Origin: Sideroxydans lithotrophicus
GTDB taxonomy: Bacteria > Pseudomonadota > Gammaproteobacteria > Burkholderiales > Gallionellaceae
Length of the DNA: 64,000 nt
Reading direction: 5' to 3'
Assembly (NCBI GenBank): GCA_020723185.1
Contig: DYJI01000007.1
Location: 59,003-123,002 of the forward strand
The notes under the pieces were generated by a model, which saw nothing but the letters and a program-made list of their open reading frames with translations, searched no databases and was not told the DNA's origin. The first letter of the stretch is position 1, and every line of letters starts with the position of its first letter. Positions 8,339-54,675 of the stretch are shown here, piece after piece. The position numbers and the translations under genes were made by a program.

Positions 8339-9616
8339 ATGTCATTCAGTCGTCGTGATTTTCTGAAGGCCGGTGTCGCCGGTATCGCAATCGGATCGTT
8401 CCCTGGACTGGCTTTTGCATCCAGCGAACTGGTCAAGAAGAAAGGCCAGCGTGTGGTGGTGGTGGGTGGCGGTTTCGGCGGTGCTACCGCTGCCAAGTAC
8501 ATCCGCAAATGGAGCAAGAACAAGATCGAGGTGGTGTTGGTCGAGCGTAATGCCAATTTCATCTCCTGCCCGATGAGCAACACCGTGCTCGGCGGCACCC
8601 GCAAGATCGAAGACCTGACCATGAGCTATGGTACGCTGCAGAAGAAGTACGGCGTGAAGCTGATCAAGGGCGAGGTCACTGCCATCGATCCGGAGAAGAA
8701 GAAAGTCATGCTGGCGGACGGCCATCTCAGCTATGACCGCCTGATCGTTTCGCCCGGTGTCGACTTCATGTTCGACAAGGTCGAGGGGCTGGATGCCAAG
8801 GTGGCGAGCGAGAGCATCCCGCACGCCTGGAAGGCCGGGGCGCAGACCGTCCTGTTGCGCAAGCAACTGGAACAGATGGCGGACGGCGGCGTGTTCGCCC
8901 TCGCCATCCCGAAAGGTCCCTATCGTTGCCCGCCGGGACCGTATGAGCGGGCCTGCCAGGTGGCGAGCTACCTGAAGGAGCACAAGCCCAAGTCCAAGGT
9001 GCTGGTGCTGGATGCCAATCCGGACATCGTCTCCAAGAAGGGGCTGTTCATGGCGGCGTGGAACGAGCTGTATCCGGGCATGGTGGAATACCGTCCGAAC
9101 TCCATGGTGCTGGGTGTCGATGTGGCGACCAAGACGGCCAAGACCGAATTCGATGATGTGAAGGCGGACGTGCTGAACGTCATTCCGCCGATGCGTTCGG
9201 GTGTGGTGGCGGACATGGCAGGGTTGGCCAATGTCGATGCGCGCTGGTGCGGGGTGGATTTTCTGAGCTATGAATCCAAGGTGCACCAGAACATCCACGT
9301 CATTGGTGATGCTGTGTCGGCCGCGTTGCCGAAGTCGGGACATATGGCGACCTCGCAGGCCAAGATCTGTGCGGCGGCGGTGATCGAGATGATGAGCGGC
9401 AAGCCGGTCGATCAAGCACCCGTCATCGCCAACACCTGCTACAGCATGGTCAGCGGCGAAGAGGCGATGCATGTGGCGAACGTGTACCACTTCAACGCCG
9501 AGAAGATGGCGATGGTGCCGGCGGAGGGCGGTGGGGTGTCGGCCACGCGCTCTGAAATGGAGGGCGCATTCGCCGGTTACTGGCTGAAGAACATCCTCAA
9601 CGACGTATTGCTCTGA
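8339..9616 (+). CDS. fccB: Flavocytochrome c sulfide dehydrogenase flavoprotein (FccB/SoxF)
   Basis: Tat signal SRRDFLK, VVVVGGGFGG FAD motif, CPMSN, CPPGPYERA, NTCYS. Confidence 0.9.
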   Translation: MSFSRRDFLKAGVAGIAIGSFPGLAFASSELVKKKGQRVVVVGGGFGGATAAKYIRKWSKNKIEVVLVERNANFISCPMSNTVLGGTRKIEDLTMSYGTLQKKYGVKLIKGEVTAIDPEKKKVMLADGHLSYDRLIVSPGVDFMFDKVEGLDAKVASESIPHAWKAGAQTVLLRKQLEQMADGGVFALAIPKGPYRCPPGPYERACQVASYLKEHKPKSKVLVLDANPDIVSKKGLFMAAWNELYPGMVEYRPNSMVLGVDVATKTAKTEFDDVKADVLNVIPPMRSGVVADMAGLANVDARWCGVDFLSYESKVHQNIHVIGDAVSAALPKSGHMATSQAKICAAAVIEMMSGKPVDQAPVIANTCYSMVSGEEAMHVANVYHFNAEKMAMVPAEGGGVSATRSEMEGAFAGYWLKNILNDVLL

Positions 9617-47675: not shown

Positions 47676-49700
<2,025 letters not shown>

Positions 49701-49802: not shown

Positions 49803-50912
49803 TTACCCGACTTTTACCCACTCGTCACCACGCACGTCGCGGTAAATTGCGGTGGTGGCAGCATCTTTGTGGCCAGCGATTGCTTGGGCATAATCCCCGC
49901 CTTGGCTCTCGGTGTAGAGTCGGATCGACAGGCTGCGGATTTCGTGGAAAGAGGGCGGGGTTTTGCCGTTCTCCCCCTTGATGCCGGCTAGGTCTCGTGC
50001 ACGGGCGAAACCCTTGGAGATGGTATCCACCCATACCTGATCACCAGGCTTGGATAGCGACCTAGGACGGGTGTGGTGAACAAGCCAGCGGCTGACGATG
50101 TTATCTCGGCATGCTTTGACGGTGGACGACAAGGAGAAACCAGCTATGCAGGTGTCGAGAGGGATGCTGACCTTGTTTTTGGTCTTACCTTGAATGACGT
50201 AGAGCCGATCATCAATCCATGCGGTCGAGTCTTTTCCACGCCGGAATTCGAGGGCTGCGATATCCTCCCTGCGCTGAGAGGTGAGCAAGGCCAGCTCCAT
50301 GGCTCGCGATATCCATGCATCAAGCTTCAAAGCCTGTTCGTAGATAAGCATGAAGTCTGGCAGTGTTAGGCGAGATCGATTGACTACGACTGTGGGCGCT
50401 CGTGTTTTTGCTGCAAGATTGTCTTCAGCCCAGCCTTCCTCAACGGCATCTTTCCAAATGTCCACTGCAGCTGAACGCATTGCTAGAGCCATGCGGGGGC
50501 GATCTTCGTAGCTATCCAGCACCTCTACCAATTGTCGCACCTTGATTTCTGAAAGATGGGTACCGGCCCCCAATGCCTTCTCCCATGCGCGGCCAGTGCT
50601 AGCTTTGTTTTTCAGAGTGTTCGCGGCAAGCTTGCGCTTCTTCTCACACAATTCAAGATGGCGCGACAGTACGCGACCAAATGTTGGAGAGCTTGGTTTG
50701 TTCTCGACGATGGTAGATAGACGCGTTGTGGCAATACTTGCATAGATAGCGCTGTTCAGTGCCATCGTGTCTGCTATTGCCTGCTCTTTGTTGGATCCGA
50801 GACCATGGCGCTTTCCGGAGCGAGGATCGCGATAGGCGTAATACACCTTGCCAGAGGTTTTATCCTCGGTGCGGTATAGATTCATTGGCAAATTGTGACG
50901 ACGTGGCCTCAT
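49803..50912 (-). CDS. int: Lambda-type tyrosine integrase with N-terminal arm-binding domain
   Basis: N-terminal RPRRHNLPMNLY..YYAYRDPRSGK; catalytic R (SQRRED), K, HxxR (FHEIRSL), GH and Y (YRDVRG). Confidence 0.95.
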   Translation of the reverse strand: MRPRRHNLPMNLYRTEDKTSGKVYYAYRDPRSGKRHGLGSNKEQAIADTMALNSAIYASIATTRLSTIVENKPSSPTFGRVLSRHLELCEKKRKLAANTLKNKASTGRAWEKALGAGTHLSEIKVRQLVEVLDSYEDRPRMALAMRSAAVDIWKDAVEEGWAEDNLAAKTRAPTVVVNRSRLTLPDFMLIYEQALKLDAWISRAMELALLTSQRREDIAALEFRRGKDSTAWIDDRLYVIQGKTKNKVSIPLDTCIAGFSLSSTVKACRDNIVSRWLVHHTRPRSLSKPGDQVWVDTISKGFARARDLAGIKGENGKTPPSFHEIRSLSIRLYTESQGGDYAQAIAGHKDAATTAIYRDVRGDEWVKVG

Positions 50913-51127
50913 GCCGCGTGGAGTATTTGCAGTGCGCGTGGTGACATTTCCATATTAGTGCATTGTACAACCACTGGAGTGCGGACCGCATTCTCGTCCA
51001 CCATGTAGCAGGTACCAACTTTTTCGGCGCCTGCAATCTGTCCTGTGGCCGCCCACGAGCGCAATATTCTGATTGATGGAGAGGGGCTATAGTGGCGGCG
51101 CCCCCAGTCTTGAAGGGTGACTTTCAT
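50909..51127 (-). CDS. xis: Excisionase (lambda Xis-like)
   Basis: 72 aa; TLQDWGRRHYSPSPSIRILRSWAATGQI; GGAG RBS; ATGA coupling to int. Confidence 0.85.
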   Translation of the reverse strand: MKVTLQDWGRRHYSPSPSIRILRSWAATGQIAGAEKVGTCYMVDENAVRTPVVVQCTNMEMSPRALQILHAA

Positions 51128-51155: not shown

Positions 51156-51196
51156 AGTGTAGAGCACTAAACCCTTAAAGGTCAAGAAGACTAAAC
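51156..51196 (-). promoter_or_regulatory. xis-int promoter overlapped by two 16-bp operators
   Basis: Minus strand TTGACC-N18-TACACT; operators at 51157-51172 and 51181-51196 match those at 52256-52318. Confidence 0.8.
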
Positions 51197-51209
51197 CCGC
51201 AAGGCAAAA

Positions 51210-51497
51210 TTAAGTAGATTTTCCAGAATTTCTAGCGAGTCGATCGGCTTGTCGGTCCAGACTTCTGGACGTGGCGGCCAAGCTGGTGGCGGTTGCCCGG
51301 ATGAGTTCAAGCACGTCATCTGCTGTGTCGACAGGCTGCCAATCTTCCGGCTTTGTGTGGCCAGATACCACCAAAGGATCTTCCATCATGCGCGTGCGGA
51401 AATCCTCATATGCCACCTGAGCCAATCTCTTGGCGCGTCTGTTGATGCGCGCAATCTGGCTATTGGTGAGCTGTGGCTGAATGGGAGTGTTCGCCAT
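51210..51497 (-). CDS. Hypothetical 95-aa protein downstream of the antisense RNA (candidate antirepressor/effector)
   Basis: AGGA RBS and ATG 51497; no family recognised; position matches that of C4-controlled genes. Confidence 0.65.
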   Translation of the reverse strand: MANTPIQPQLTNSQIARINRRAKRLAQVAYEDFRTRMMEDPLVVSGHTKPEDWQPVDTADDVLELIRATATSLAATSRSLDRQADRLARNSGKST

Positions 51498-51549
51498 GAT
51501 GGCTATCCTGGGCCTGGTTGGTTTTCACCGTCACTGATTGGAATGAGGA

Positions 51550-51620
51550 GGGTGGCAATACGGGTTGACAGACCGGAACCAAGGAACCGGCAGAGCTTTC
51601 GCTCTCCCACACTGCCACCC
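51550..51620 (-). ncRNA. C4 (P1/P7) / CI (P4)-like antisense RNA
   Basis: Three-way junction: 15-bp closing stem GGGTGGCAGTGTGGG/CCCGTATTGCCACCC, AGAGC-GAAA-GCTCT hairpin, (G)CCGG-loop-CCGG(T) hairpin and single-stranded CTGTCAA. The loop and bulge are complementary to an upstream site. Confidence 0.82.
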
Positions 51621-51644
51621 AATAGGGGGCGTGTTTACGGACAT

Positions 51645-51668
51645 AAAAAAGCCGCGGTGCAGGCGGCT
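51645..51668 (-). terminator. Rho-independent terminator between the antisense target and the antisense RNA
   Basis: Minus strand AGCCGC-CTGCACC-GCGGCT followed by TTTTT. Confidence 0.75.
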
Positions 51669-51674
51669 GATCCG

Positions 51675-51693
51675 CTTGGTTCCGAGCTGTCAA
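51675..51693 (-). promoter_or_regulatory. Antisense target site (a1/b1- or seqA-like)
   Basis: TTGACAG-CTC-GGAACCAAG pairs with CTTGGTTCC-GGT-CTGTCAA of the RNA (18 of 19 positions, including one G-U). Confidence 0.8.
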
Positions 51694-51723
51694 ACTCGAC
51701 CGGCAATTTGTGCTGGCCCGCGC

Positions 51724-51752
51724 AGTATGCCTATCAGCGAATTTTGTGTCAA
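51724..51752 (-). promoter_or_regulatory. Near-consensus sigma70 promoter driving the antisense-RNA transcript
   Basis: TTGACA-N17-CATACT; no GTTTAG operator overlaps it. Confidence 0.8.
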
Positions 51753-51886: not shown

Positions 51887-52255
51887 TTATTGGGTCGCCT
51901 GCTTTCTTTGGGTTTGGGGAGCGCCACTATCTCCGTCTGGTTCAGCGAGCGGAGTAATGATTTTGACAGCATCTTTCCGACGGCTTTCGCTCATTGCCTC
52001 CATGATCTTCATTGCCTGGCGAATACTTGGATCAAGCTTCATAGGGCCATCTCCAAGCATCATCCAGCGAGCACTAAACCCAGTGGTTTCCTCGAGCTTG
52101 TATGCATAACGGGGGGCGAAAGACTTAATCAGCCCGGACTGGAGCTGATTCGCAACTGACTTGGACATCCCGCAAAGCTTGCCGAACTCGGTGTCCTCAT
52201 CGATTCCGAGCTCTTGTTTGACGATGGCAATGCGCTCGGGGATTGTTGTTTTCAT
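51887..52255 (-). CDS. CI-like XRE repressor without an S24 peptidase domain
   Basis: 122 aa; N-terminal HTH pattern and FSARWMMLGDG motif; divergent from the cro-like gene. Confidence 0.8.
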   Translation of the reverse strand: MKTTIPERIAIVKQELGIDEDTEFGKLCGMSKSVANQLQSGLIKSFAPRYAYKLEETTGFSARWMMLGDGPMKLDPSIRQAMKIMEAMSESRRKDAVKIITPLAEPDGDSGAPQTQRKQATQ

Positions 52256-52319
52256 GTTTAGACATTAAAACAATTCAAGTTTAGAAGGATTGACTGTCGC
52301 AGGTTTAGTGTTCTACACT
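52256..52319. promoter_or_regulatory. OR-like region with three 16-bp operators and divergent promoters
   Basis: GTTTAG-N4-TAAAAC (52256), GTTTAG-N4-ATTGAC (52279), GTTTAG-N4-CTACAC (52303); rightward promoter TTGACT-N18-TACACT. Confidence 0.8.
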
Positions 52320-52325
52320 GAAAAC

Positions 52326-52547
52326 ATGGACAGCGAGGAACTCAAAAAACATCGGGCACTAATCGAGCAGATAGGCACCGTGCCCCTCATGGTGATGTTC
52401 GACATCAGCAAGGGGGCGATATCTCAATGGCGCAGCAATGGCATCCCAAAGGCTCGCCTGATGTATCTGGAATTGAGTCATCCAGAATTGTTTTCTGACT
52501 CTCCAAAGTCCAAATCGTCAAAAAAGCCACGCAAGGAAACACTATGA
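52326..52547 (+). CDS. Cro-like HTH protein
   Basis: 73 aa; FDISKGAISQWRSNGIPKARLMYL is a typical Cro/transcriptional regulator pattern. Confidence 0.8.
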   Translation: MDSEELKKHRALIEQIGTVPLMVMFDISKGAISQWRSNGIPKARLMYLELSHPELFSDSPKSKSSKKPRKETL

Positions 52548-52783
52548 GTGGCAGCAATACCAGTTTGAACGCGCGCAAATCAGGTGACGGTTGTTTGCTC
52601 AGGTGTCTCCTTCACACGTTATCTGAGTCGCTGCGAGGGGTATGGGTGCCCCGGGCAGTAACACTGCTGCGCGTTCCCCTTTCTAGGTTCGCTCGGAATA
52701 CACAGAGCGAATCACAACCTCAAGACTACAACAAATCATCTCACTGGGTGCTGGTCGCCTCACCATCGAAGGATCATCGATGA
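52544..52783 (+). CDS. Hypothetical 79-aa protein at the cII-equivalent position
   Basis: ATGA overlaps with both cro and rep; no family recognised. Confidence 0.45.
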   Translation: MSGSNTSLNARKSGDGCLLRCLLHTLSESLRGVWVPRAVTLLRVPLSRFARNTQSESQPQDYNKSSHWVLVASPSKDHR

Positions 52784-53874
52784 GGCAAAGGACTATCAGT
52801 GACGACTTCTGGCGCGACTCACAAATATGGGGATTGAGCCAAGAGGATACTGCGACCCTGCTGTATCTACTCACCAGCCCATCCTCCAACATCATCGGCT
52901 GTTACCGCGTGGTGTGGCGGATAGCTGCCGCAGAGATGGGCTGGACCGCCGATCAAATGCTAGTTGTGGTCAAGCGCCTGCAGGAGAAAGACCTCATTGA
53001 ATACACAGATTCAGGCTGGGTCTGGGTGAAGATCTGGTGGCGGCATAACTCCACGGCCGTTGCCCTGAATCCCAAGTCGAAGCTCATCAAGCATGCGCGG
53101 AATCAGTTTGCCGACATCCCAAGAGATTGGCTGGACGCCTTCGGGAAGAGCCTGGAAGCGCTTGGGATCAACACGCGCGAAATCGGGTTTCCAAGCCCCA
53201 TCAAGGCGGCACCAGATGCCCCATCTAATACCCCATCTAATACCCCATCTAATACCCCTTCTGATGCCTCATCACATGCCTCATCAGATGCCTCATCAGA
53301 TGCCTCATCAGATGCCTCATCAGATGCCCCATCGGAAAACGTGAAAACCCATCAACAACGGGGTTTGGATGCCCCATCAGATGCGGCACCAGATGCCCCA
53401 GGGGATGGGGCCGGGGGTAACAGGTATCTGGTATCTGGTAACACCACCACCACAAGCTCCTCCTCCCAAGATGGCAAACCCGTGGTGGTGGTGCCAGATT
53501 TATTTTTTCCACCCCCAACCCCCCAACCCGAGCGTGACTCGATCCAGGCGGTATTGGTCAGCAGCGGTGTCGCCGAGGAATTCTGGCAGATGCTCGTTGA
53601 TGAGCTGTACGGCGCTCGCATGCATCGAGAAATCAGCAATCCGGTGGGCTACATCCGCGGGATGGCCGAACGGGCGATCAGCGGCACCTTTACCCCGGAA
53701 CGCGGCATCAATGTGGCGAAGAAGCGGGAAGAGGCTGCCGCTCAGGCACGGCAAGACGAGGCACAAAACAAGGCATTTCTGGACAGCCAACGCCCAGCAG
53801 ACGAAGTGCTGAGCCGCCTACCAGCTCGCACAAGCGCTTTCTTGGAAAAGATGACGGGAGGACATTCGAAATGA
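52780..53874 (+). CDS. Phage-type replication initiator-like protein
   Basis: N-terminal ISDDFWRD...LLYLLTSPSSNIIGCY...AAAEMG winged-helix pattern; central repeat tract; C-terminal ISNPVGYIRGM. Confidence 0.7.
   Translation: MRQRTISDDFWRDSQIWGLSQEDTATLLYLLTSPSSNIIGCYRVVWRIAAAEMGWTADQMLVVVKRLQEKDLIEYTDSGWVWVKIWWRHNSTAVALNPKSKLIKHARNQFADIPRDWLDAFGKSLEALGINTREIGFPSPIKAAPDAPSNTPSNTPSNTPSDASSHASSDASSDASSDASSDAPSENVKTHQQRGLDAPSDAAPDAPGDGAGGNRYLVSGNTTTTSSSSQDGKPVVVVPDLFFPPPTPQPERDSIQAVLVSSGVAEEFWQMLVDELYGARMHREISNPVGYIRGMAERAISGTFTPERGINVAKKREEAAAQARQDEAQNKAFLDSQRPADEVLSRLPARTSAFLEKMTGGHSK
53215..53400 (+). repeat. Intragenic 12-bp tandem repeats (iteron-like) plus a small inverted repeat
   Basis: Ten in-register units at 53215-53334 (AATACCCCATCT x2-3, GATGCCTCATCA x4-5), then AAACCC...GGGTTT, then further GATGCCCCATCA-like copies from 53368. 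Confidence 0.85.
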
Positions 53875-54179
53875 GCACCACCAATTCCTTGCAAAAGGAC
53901 ATCGTGACGCTGAATCGGCGATTCCTGTTGGTTGTCCAGCAGATGGCCAACGCAAAGCATCCTCTCTTGGCCCCCTGTGTTCCTGGCTGGCTGATGCAGA
54001 AAGTGCGCAACATGACGCTTGAGGAGATCGATGCACTTGCAGAAGACATGATCGCACCTTGCTTCCATCTGAATCTTCAGGAGGGGCACTTCGACCAGAT
54101 GAAAGAGATCCCTCAAGGATCTCGACGCAAGGCGTATTTGGCCAATGTGGTCGCCACTCACTCGGCTTCCCATGCTTAA
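53871..54179 (+). CDS. FlhD-like activator subunit (SetD/AcaD analogue)
   Basis: DIVTLNRRFLLVVQQMA...MTLEEIDALA...CFHL pattern; precedes the FlhC-like gene. Confidence 0.72.
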   Translation: MSTTNSLQKDIVTLNRRFLLVVQQMANAKHPLLAPCVPGWLMQKVRNMTLEEIDALAEDMIAPCFHLNLQEGHFDQMKEIPQGSRRKAYLANVVATHSASHA

Positions 54180-54675
54180 CGAGACCATTGCACAAACGCA
54201 GGCTTTTGCCACGACCCTGATCAGGGATGGCATGCGCATAGCGCTTGTGCACTCCATTACCGGAATTGCCCGGCACCATCTGCTGGATTTGCGCAAATCG
54301 ATACATGGGGACGATGCGCCGATGCAGGGGCGGATGCCGAACGACACCATGGCGTACATCAAGAGCGGCCAGTCCACAGTTGCGCTCGCGACGGTGGTTG
54401 CGGTGTACGTTGGGGCAGAGAAAAAACACAAGTCGCCGGTTGAAGCGTTTATGGACGCATGGGCGGTGGCAAAGTTGTTTGCAGATGGCGCGACTCCGCT
54501 GGACATCAATGCCGCTTGGTATGCGGTGCGCGATGTCAAAGCCGGCCTGATTACATGGGCCTACTGCAAAAACTGCAAGGCAGGGTATCTACTCGATACC
54601 AAGCAAACAAAAAAGACAGACATCTGTCCTTACTGCGGCGCTCAGAAACAAAAGCAGATCGAGGTGGCCCAGTGA
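54172..54675 (+). CDS. FlhC-like activator subunit (SetC/AcaC analogue)
   Basis: GMRIALVHSITG N-terminus, LDINAAWY, C-terminal Zn site CKNC...CPYC. Confidence 0.8.
   Translation: MLNETIAQTQAFATTLIRDGMRIALVHSITGIARHHLLDLRKSIHGDDAPMQGRMPNDTMAYIKSGQSTVALATVVAVYVGAEKKHKSPVEAFMDAWAVAKLFADGATPLDINAAWYAVRDVKAGLITWAYCKNCKAGYLLDTKQTKKTDICPYCGAQKQKQIEVAQ

Follow-up and report, generated by a model that had tools for sequence, protein, structure and literature searches.

A P1 immI-like C4 RNA and putative antirepressor cassette in an F-type integrative and conjugative element of Sideroxydans lithotrophicus

What does an antisense RNA of the C4 type control when it lies inside a conjugative element? The question is raised by a 64,000-nucleotide stretch of Sideroxydans lithotrophicus DNA (contig DYJI01000007.1 of assembly GCA_020723185.1; this whole stretch is called the window, and all positions count from its first letter). 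The window holds an F-type integrative and conjugative element (ICE) in which a short minus-strand region, ending in a 95-amino-acid open reading frame (orf95), separates a cI-like repressor gene from the xis and int genes. An earlier note on this DNA, made from its letters, had read the region as a complete C4/CI-type antisense circuit that times or silences orf95, and perhaps xis-int, in a naive recipient. Our analysis retained the RNA and its upstream target and changed the reading of its output: judged by its sequence, the region is a P1 immI-like cassette of C4 RNA and antirepressor, placed as an accessory module of the ICE between the repressor gene and xis-int.

The C4 RNA, its leader and their complementarity

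A search of the whole window with Rfam models gave a match to the C4 antisense RNA family (RF01695) at 51627-51550 on the minus strand, with a score of 51.0 bits against a gathering score of 45 (E = 7.1e-7). The match covered model positions 1-87, the full length, and C4 was the sole Rfam family reaching threshold in the 64-kb window. The parts of the cassette to which the text refers are as follows.

51724-51752, minus strand: promoter P_C4, TTGACA-17 nt-CATACT (consensus scan, 10 of 12 positions, the best promoter-like site of the scan)
51699-51717, minus strand: leader hairpin 1, GCCAGC-ACAAATT-GCCGGT, the counterpart of the opening hairpin in the Rfam models c4-a1b1 and isrK
51683-51698, minus strand: leader hairpin 2, with a CGAG/CTCG stem whose loop presents b1, TTGACAG (51693-51687)
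51675-51683, minus strand: a1, GGAACCAAG, single-stranded and complementary to a'
51645-51668, minus strand: intrinsic terminator, AGCCGC-CTGCACC-GCGGCT followed by T6 (terminator scan; stem 51668-51650, end of the T-run 51645)
51550-51627, minus strand: C4 antisense RNA (RF01695, fold and covariation), with a structured core of 71 nt at 51620-51550
51583-51575, minus strand: a', CTTGGTTCC, in the loop of C4 hairpin 2
51571-51565, minus strand: b', CTGTCAA, in the C4 junction strand
51525-51537, minus strand: b2 hairpin, TCA-GTGACGG-TGA (b2 at 51534-51528), conserved and homologous to the canonical b2 hairpin of locus L134
51517-51525, minus strand: putative, weak a2, AAAACCAAC, of which just AACCAA pairs with a' (6 bp)
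51210-51497, minus strand: orf95, 95 amino acids, with its ATG at 51497 (profile search)

The C4 core folds into a three-way junction made of an outer closing stem, a hairpin 1 capped by GAAA and a hairpin 2. Its minimum free energy (MFE) was -38.7 kcal/mol (z = -4.6), and none of 200 shuffled sequences was equally stable. When the helices were compared across eight distinct related sequences, 97.5% of the cells of the 25 pairs were paired, against 43-50% with slid partners; seven pairs showed compensatory changes on both sides, which 0 of 500 shuffles equalled. The earlier note had drawn a C4-type three-way junction with a GAAA tetraloop at 51620-51550 and had named the Rfam C4 model as a check, and the fold, the coordinates and the model all agree with that description. 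A distant blastn search with the 291-bp region found no match in phages; two Arsenophonus plasmids matched the C4 core over 50 nt and nothing more, and no annotated relative came to light. We have very little doubt that the RNA at 51627-51550, with the a1b1 leader that belongs to it, is a true C4-family RNA.

The leader begins at P_C4, whose -35 and -10 elements are kept in five related loci (L002, L004, L005, L006 and L009). By inspection, neither a LexA box nor the GTTTAG operator-like repeat found elsewhere in this ICE lies near P_C4, and the promoter is probably constitutive. The terminator closes an IsrK-like leader RNA of about 75 nt and is kept in all related loci. Both signals sit where the earlier note had placed them, at 51752-51724 and 51668-51645. 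Among ten related leaders, the helices of hairpin 1, the b1 hairpin and the terminator were 88.8% paired, compared with 20-43% with slid partners, and three of the six pairs of hairpin 1 were altered on both sides. The best non-C4 Rfam match of the leader was isrK (RF01394), which spanned 51717-51645 with 37.4 bits, below its gathering score of 50 (E = 3.8e-6 in a local search); homologous loci scored 27-42 bits. The c4-a1b1 model (RF03163), the second model named in the earlier note, likewise stayed below its gathering score, at 24.8 against 46.7 bits (E = 0.0011 in a 1.4-kb search). Because the leader has the same two-hairpin architecture and its helices co-vary, it probably acts like an a1b1 motif even though it falls below the curated model.

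Leaders of the L013/L134 type carry, about 100-200 nt upstream and replacing the window-type promoter, repeated CTGTAGATGC / GTAGATGCTCTAC motifs, which suggests that the cassette promoter there is under a different repressor. In P1, C1 controls P51b.

The leader is complementary to the C4 loop and junction over 19 nt, with one mismatch and one G·U pair, and b1 is a perfect complement of b'. Of the signals compared among relatives, this pairing between the two RNAs is the strongest. An unbiased repeat finder recovered the same match as a 19-nt inverted repeat with 89% complementarity. RNAduplex gave -29.8 kcal/mol for leader and C4, compared with -15.0±3.3 kcal/mol for 1000 shuffles, of which none was as good. 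The reading of TTGACAG as a target in a CGAG/CTCG hairpin loop with a1 adjacent (51693-51675), and of the C4 loop and bulge as its complement, thus stands in coordinates, hairpin and energy. A target pattern of 16 specified bases had no other site in the window at up to three mismatches, that is, no trans targets there.

Close relatives of the window locus fell into three specificity types with matched changes in leader and C4.

Window type: b1 TTGACAG, b' CTGTCAA, a1 GGAACCAAG, a' CTTGGTTCC
L013 type: b1 TTGGCGT, b' ACGCCAA, a1 GGAAAAGG, a' CCTTTTCC
L012 type: b1 TTGGAAG, b' CTTCCAA

Co-variation of a1b1 with a'b' was also seen in L134, which we grouped with the L013 type. For the three types, cognate leader/C4 pairs were predicted at about -30 kcal/mol and cross pairs at -11 to -19 kcal/mol; with its own leader the L013 C4 reached -30.2 kcal/mol, but with the window-type leader -11.1, and the window-type C4 reached -19.1 with the L013 leader. 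The comparison was extended to 69 C4 loci (64 fetched by a DNA pattern, as described below, with the window, L004, L005, L012 and L013). Among the matches listed, the cognate leader was the best partner in 38 of the 69 and one of the top three in 51.

Recombination breakpoints were observed at the cassette joints when L001 was compared with the window and L011 with L012. L001 is identical to the window in the repressor gene, cro-like gene, leader, C4, xis and int, and has an untranslated region (UTR) and orf95 of the L002 type. In L011 the leader and UTR are of the window type, but the C4 is foreign and fits neither of the two.

orf95, its relatives and the downstream target

No match to orf95 was found in Pfam, PHROG or NCBIfam. 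An exhaustive profile search recovered about 40 relatives, most of them 214-253 amino acids long, in which the orf95-like segment forms the C-terminal ~85 residues. Nine of ten relatives scanned carry AntA, Rha, Bro-N or KilA-N at the N-terminus (the tenth, P0018, had no Pfam match), and these architectures are classic modular layouts of phage antirepressors and regulators. The product of orf95 is 60% identical over 80 amino acids to the AntA-type protein P0012 (E = 5e-34; profile and pairwise E-values reached 4e-34) and 45% identical to a Bro-N protein. Both full-length relatives that could be placed on contigs (L134 and L135) are preceded by C4 RNAs. The L134 RNA belongs to the same subfamily as that of the window, scores 86 bits with a purpose-built covariance model and has a canonical leader. 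The orf95 of L013 is an intermediate that partly retains the N-terminal extension.

From these alignments, orf95 is a stand-alone version of the C-terminal domain common to AntA, Rha, Bro-N and KilA-N antirepressors, and its own antirepressor role is putative. The cassette antirepressor appears to have lost its N-terminal domain. The ratio of nonsynonymous to synonymous substitution rates (dN/dS) among the orf95 genes was 0.12-0.43 with dS up to 1.6, values that identify orf95 as a real, constrained gene under purifying selection. An AlphaFold2 model of the product is a helical hairpin with a predicted local distance difference test score (pLDDT) of 78. Foldseek searches with this model had no hit in the PDB and, in BFVD, none with E under 2.5, and a sequence profile search of the PDB returned noise only. 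The earlier note's comparison with P1/P7 C4 and P4 CI was correct, and the homology of orf95 to antirepressor C-terminal domains strengthens it. Because its product is antirepressor-like, orf95 points to induction, that is, to excision and transfer, rather than to establishment.

Ten clusters of orf95 were found among 5.8 billion proteins, which makes the gene rare; thirteen contigs encoding orf95 relatives were fetched. A C4 RNA with an isrK-like leader lay upstream in all ten homologues for which upstream DNA was present, and the gene order was that of the window (122-amino-acid repressor gene, isrK-like leader, C4, orf95), L013 excepted as regards the repressor family. The gene following orf95 varied, being a lambda-type integrase gene beside uvrB, a P4-type integrase gene with AlpA, or another integrase gene beside a tRNA gene. 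Because close cassette relatives carry different integrases, the integration module has been swapped. The P4-type integrase with AlpA occurs in L006-L008, and the integrase beside a tRNA gene in L011 and L012; L009 and L010 encode a homologue of the L011/L012 integrase on contigs that end before any tRNA gene.

For a wider comparison, a covariance model built from the related RNAs was applied to at least 120 loci (L014-L133) that a loose DNA pattern had fetched from named genomes; about one third of the pattern matches were chance matches in unrelated phyla. At least 68 C4 matches (67 complete and one 3' partial) were obtained in 65 of these loci. Their hosts were Pseudomonas, Xanthomonas, Burkholderiales, methanotrophs and others, and their a'/b' sequences were highly diverse, with matched b2. 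The a' loop consensus in these loci, UUCCUU, acts as an anti-Shine-Dalgarno sequence among the matches listed. The first gene after C4 was examined in 47 cases among the matches listed and was of antirepressor type in 16 (Bro-N in seven, P22_AR_N in three, Rha in three, ORF6N in two and KilA-N in one); other first genes encoded DUF6124, DUF3077 and SymE-toxin proteins, and many second and third open reading frames were spurious high-GC frames. When the proteins of the window ICE were compared with the same loci by tblastn and hmmsearch, no homologues were found in them.

The canonical layout downstream of C4 consists of b2 in the loop of a small hairpin, a spacer hairpin, and an a2 that is the Shine-Dalgarno sequence itself. 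Wherever a2 was read (L048, L077, L099 and L134), it lay on the Shine-Dalgarno sequence, as in the example of a2 AACCAAGGAG opposite a' UUCCUUGGUU. L134 shows the complete arrangement, with a b2 hairpin TCA-TTTGACAG-TGA, the spacer hairpin after it, and GAAAAGGAG as the a2 that occupies the Shine-Dalgarno sequence. Among the matches listed, a perfect b2 began 1-8 nt after the RNA in 57 of 60 cases, and the remaining three, which include L004 and L005, began at 11-14 nt. In the window the b2 hairpin lies 11 nt from the RNA and the spacer hairpin is gone; to judge from the alignment, the deletion that took the N-terminal domain of the antirepressor also removed the canonical arrangement of a2 on the Shine-Dalgarno sequence. 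What is left is partly conserved. A 15-nt block of the b2 region, TCAGTGACGGTGAAA, is identical in L006 although dS for orf95 is 0.76, and L004 (TTGACAG/CTGTCAA) and L005 (TTGACGG/CCGTCAA) each have a b2 that fits b' without a mismatch. L013 has b2 TTGGCGG opposite b' ACGCCAA, and b2 was counted as co-varying with b' in L004, L005 and L013; a2 is not conserved in L004 and L006. The conservation of b2 and the matches in L004, L005 and L013 are evidence that may be read as a residual downstream function.

The host element and its expression

The genes and promoters around the cassette are listed here.

47676-49700, plus strand: uvrB; the integrase end of the element lies about 100 nt from its stop codon
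49803-50912, minus strand: int, a lambda-type integrase gene (Pfam Arm-DNA-bind_1 and Phage_integrase)
50909-51127, minus strand: xis (Pfam Exc)
51156-51197, minus strand: xis-int promoter TTGACC-18 nt-TACACT with GGTTTAG repeats (consensus scan; promoter 51185-51156)
51887-52255, minus strand: cI-like repressor gene, 122 amino acids (PHROG transcriptional-repressor families)
52290-52319, plus strand: cro-like promoter TTGACT-18 nt-TACACT with GTTTAG repeats (consensus scan; region 52279-52319)
52326-52547, plus strand: cro-like gene (PHROG)
52780-53874, plus strand: gene for a DnaD-like or island-replication-like protein (library scans)
53871-54179, plus strand: open reading frame of 102 amino acids without a family match, overlapping the flhC-like gene and in the FlhD/SetD position
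54145-54675, plus strand: gene for an FlhC-like activator (Pfam FlhC, E = 1.2e-11)

The FlhC-like gene is followed on the plus strand by SLT and OmpA-like genes and then by traL-E-K-B-dsbC-traV-traC. No capsid or terminase gene was found in the window, where the neighbours are TraL, TraE, TraK, TraB, DsbC, TraV, TraC and SLT. The host is, by this gene content, an F-type ICE inserted at the 3' end of uvrB, with its relaxase and coupling protein beyond the window; the earlier placement of the circuit inside a conjugative element is borne out by int and xis at uvrB and by the F-type tra genes. The same layout of conjugative neighbours was found in L001, L002 and L136. G+C content is 54.1% in the element and 60.4% in the chromosome. 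The int gene adjoins uvrB in four chromosomal backgrounds with different chromosomal neighbours (the window, L001, L004 and L005), and because of this recurrence insertion at the uvrB 3' end appears site-specific.

The cI-like repressor has no Pfam peptidase or self-cleavage domain; repressors without such a domain typically rely on an antirepressor for induction. Phages L137 and L138 encode the same repressor family and have no C4. The xis-int and cro-like promoters share an exact 18-mer, GGTTTAGTGYTCTACACT, which is found at these two only (0.01 expected by chance). According to the repeat finder, their homology extends over 41 nt with flanking GTTTAG repeats. The shared 18-mer and repeats are probably common operators of the 122-amino-acid repressor, for which they are the candidates. 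The earlier note had suggested xis-int as a further output of the RNA circuit. We rejected dependence of xis-int on the C4 transcript as its main route, because xis-int has a separate promoter that is a twin of the cro-like promoter and the C4 circuit is therefore unlikely to be its main control.

The DnaD-like or island-replication-like protein contains PSNT/ASSD tandem repeats (DNA positions ~53220-53330), and contig X25, from a metatranscriptome or metagenome, skips 55 nt at 53220-53276. This skip suggests a repeat-length polymorphism between strains.

The locus is present in groundwater, subsurface, hot-spring and mine metagenomes. In assembled contigs of a subsurface metatranscriptome (X16), one contig with a depth of 12.7 ran from 52319 to 51679 and covered the repressor gene, P_C4 and the leader; it ended at 51679, inside a1, with Illumina adapter attached. 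A second contig (51535-51313, depth 2.5) began just 3' of C4 and ran into orf95. No other part of the locus was transcribed as strongly as the repressor gene in this metatranscriptome. Neither xis nor the cro-like gene was covered by an assembled contig, and for int there was one 158-nt contig (49993-50150, depth 5.4). Assembled contigs are unreliable for RNA ends and abundance, and the coverage of X25 is flat and low and may come from DNA or from a variant element. The contigs agree with an element that is integrated and repressed, whose cassette promoter is active and whose transcript is processed around C4, and the ends at 51679 and 51535, each from a single assembled contig, hint at RNA ends that flank the C4 region.

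Proposed mechanism, rival readings and precedents

The mechanism that we favour can be outlined as follows. P_C4, probably constitutive, would make a leader in which hairpin 1 is followed by the loop-borne b1 and by a1. The intrinsic terminator would stop most transcripts as the ~75-nt IsrK-like RNA, and read-through would carry the 71-nt C4 RNA and the orf95 message, with C4 probably cut out as in P1, P4 and Gifsy-1. The 5' end of P1 C4 is matured by RNase P. Through a' in its loop and b' in its junction, C4 would pair with the leader; a weaker pairing of C4 with a2 and the b2 hairpin would lower ORF95 synthesis. ORF95 would be a minimal antirepressor that inactivates the short, non-cleavable cI-like repressor. 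Inactivation of the repressor would open the twin promoters, that of the cro-like gene and transfer activator and that of xis-int, and would lead to excision and transfer. We give this whole chain a probability of roughly 0.55; RNA processing, repression of orf95 by C4 in this element, the action of ORF95 on the repressor and the physiological outcome are the steps that we infer.

Several observations weigh against this chain. The downstream site is the weakest part of it. The window b2 pairs with b' at six of seven positions, one of them G·U, compared with a perfect 7/7 b2 in 60 of the 73 C4 loci tabulated among the matches listed, and a gap of 7 nt separates a2 from the AGGA Shine-Dalgarno sequence (51509-51506) that follows it. 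The predicted downstream pairing, -18.0 kcal/mol, was equalled by 302 of 1000 shuffles, and among the matches listed the site ranked only 36th of 69 against non-cognate UTRs. The second site of the earlier note (51534-51517) is present as written and was aptly called weaker; it is degenerate, its energy is not above chance and its a2 lies off the Shine-Dalgarno sequence. L011 and L012 have different C4 RNAs whose b' and a' are mismatched to the b2 and a2 that these loci retain, and because of this mismatch C4 control of orf95 is not kept everywhere; the L011 RNA is mismatched to its own leader as well. Foldseek and PDB searches gave no match that would tie ORF95 to the repressor, and L013 and L134 carry the orf95-like domain without the window's repressor family upstream. 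The C4 small RNA is absent from the metatranscriptome contigs, which are assembled contigs that leave the RNA uncovered. Finally, a sister ICE (L136; JGI 3300045994, 8373-8622) shares the tra layout, and its repressor is 69% identical, but the C4-orf95 cassette is missing and an HTH_17 xis-like gene comes straight after the repressor gene. Because L136 works without it, the cassette is an accessory insertion and not the core establishment switch that had been proposed before.

The rival readings and the favoured mechanism are not mutually exclusive. Heteroimmunity is one that we entertain tentatively. The interchangeable C4/leader types, at least three in number and with breakpoints at their joints, would decide by which resident element the minimal antirepressor of an incoming or co-resident one is silenced and which ICEs are compatible in excision and transfer, by analogy with P1 and P7. 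Just as doubtful, in our estimate, is activation of the IsrK type, in which the leader a1b1 RNA would act in trans as an activator or as an anti-C4 sponge and open a cis lock between a1b1 and a'b' on the read-through message, switching on orf95 translation. In its MFE structure (-95.2 kcal/mol, z = -4.2) the whole read-through RNA does have these two elements paired in cis, the isrK-like leader has a real terminator, and the match of leader and C4 is the best-conserved interaction, kept even where b2 and a2 mismatch (L012). There is also a precedent in Gifsy-1, where the short IsrK activates a translationally inactive read-through mRNA and an ~80-nt complementary RNA is processed (PMC4825925). 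However, the isrK score lies under the gathering score, the activated gene of Gifsy-1 follows a short open reading frame overlapping the C4-like region, of which none is evident here, and the b2 hairpin, which such a model does not need, is conserved and partly co-varying. A termination scheme of the P4 type is unlikely. Pairing of C4 with nascent a1b1 would alter the adjacent terminator, so that the RNA autoregulates its own synthesis and sets read-through into orf95. The end of a1 is only 6 nt ahead of the terminator stem, P4 CI causes premature termination by pairing with seqA and seqC, and the authors of the IsrK study suggest the same for STnc1160 at the IsrK terminator (PMC4825925). Inspection of the leader, however, revealed no convincing antiterminator, only a 4-bp GCGG/CCGC helix against the 6-bp G+C-rich terminator stem, and the mismatch of the L011 leader to its own C4 also counts against this scheme. 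A further point against it is that termination in P4 lies downstream of the RNA gene, not upstream.

The timer or immunity switch of the earlier note, in which orf95 and xis-int are expressed briefly on entry into a naive recipient and then silenced, to provide establishment control or exclusion of related ICEs, is in our view improbable. The three or more a'/b' specificity types with matching leaders among close relatives do form a heteroimmunity pattern like that of P1 and P7 (PMC12197685), and P_C4 looks constitutive. Against it stand the separate xis-int promoter with its candidate operators, a twin of the cro-like promoter, the antirepressor-like domain of orf95, which fits induction better than establishment, the lack of the cassette in L136 and the lack of trans targets elsewhere in the window. 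Least credible of all is decay, by which a captured phage C4-ant cassette would have lost its N-terminal domain and downstream target and would no longer provide useful regulation. The degenerate b2 and a2 of the window, the mismatched parts of the L011 chimera, the truncation of the antirepressor relative to L134 and the dispensability of the cassette in L136 could be read in this way, but the purifying selection on orf95, the near invariance of C4, leader and b2 hairpin over the same divergence (dS up to 1.6), and the transcription of the locus in situ speak against a relic.

The closest precedent for the favoured mechanism is immI of P1 and P7 (c4-icd-ant), where c4 blocks antirepressor synthesis at the ribosome-binding site and where P1 and P7 are specificity variants (PMC12197685). 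The window cassette has an RNA of the same RF01695 family lying upstream on the transcript of its putative target gene, recognition through the a' loop and b' junction, a complementary a1b1 upstream and a putative, weaker a2b2 downstream, and an antirepressor-related product. Unlike immI, it resides in a conjugative element, the gene that it would regulate encodes only a C-terminal antirepressor domain (95 amino acids), a terminator separates a1b1 from the RNA, a2 lies off the ribosome-binding site and b2 is imperfect, and no icd-like coupling frame was identified at the window locus.

The Salmonella Gifsy-1 system of IsrK, STnc1160 (orf45) and anrP is alike in its promoter, two-hairpin leader, Rho-independent terminator, ~80-nt read-through RNA complementary to the leader, and regulated gene, and the study describing it also sets out the relationship of IsrK and STnc1160 to P4 seqA and CI, IsrK being a homologue of seqA (PMC4825925). 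The window read-through RNA is likewise predicted to pair leader and C4 in cis. The window cassette differs from Gifsy-1 in that the product there is AnrP, which induces an antiterminator and is reached by translational coupling through orf45, and in that the leader RNA is an activator there. P4 immunity (CI RNA, seqA and seqC) also uses a small RNA that comes from the controlled transcript and pairs up- and downstream of itself; in P4 the mode of action is premature termination of transcription, and the genes controlled are those for replication. Weinberg et al. described the C4 family and its c4-a1b1 motif in 2010 and noted C4 RNAs occasionally near the STAXI motif with ssb, topoisomerase, antirestriction and integrase genes (PMC2864571), and a tandem isrK-C4 annotation exists in Xylella (PMC12189769).

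As for the host, the cI-like repressor, divergent cro-like gene, FlhC-like activator and traLEKB block presumably correspond to the modules of SXT/R391 and IncC elements (SetR, SetCD/AcaCD), which they resemble. The window element differs from these in its short repressor without a self-cleavage domain and in its integration at uvrB. In the literature searched on the SXT/R391 and IncC families we found no C4 RNA or antirepressor cassette, and a literature search found no paper linking C4 RNA to integrative conjugative elements.

The C4 family, the leader motif and the logic of RNA and antirepressor are already described, and the locus does not represent a new class of mechanism. New are the ICE as host, the shortened antirepressor together with the domain thus defined, an a2 detached from the ribosome-binding site, and the modular exchange of cassette parts. 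These points concern both the regulation of ICEs and the study of phage-derived small RNAs. If the favoured mechanism is true, a conjugative element would have taken over a phage immunity device as a gate on its own excision and transfer, and RNA control of the C4 type would extend beyond phages. A compact, unannotated antirepressor domain would then be common to AntA, Rha, Bro-N and KilA-N proteins, and the specificity types would provide natural variants for studying RNA-based compatibility among ICEs.

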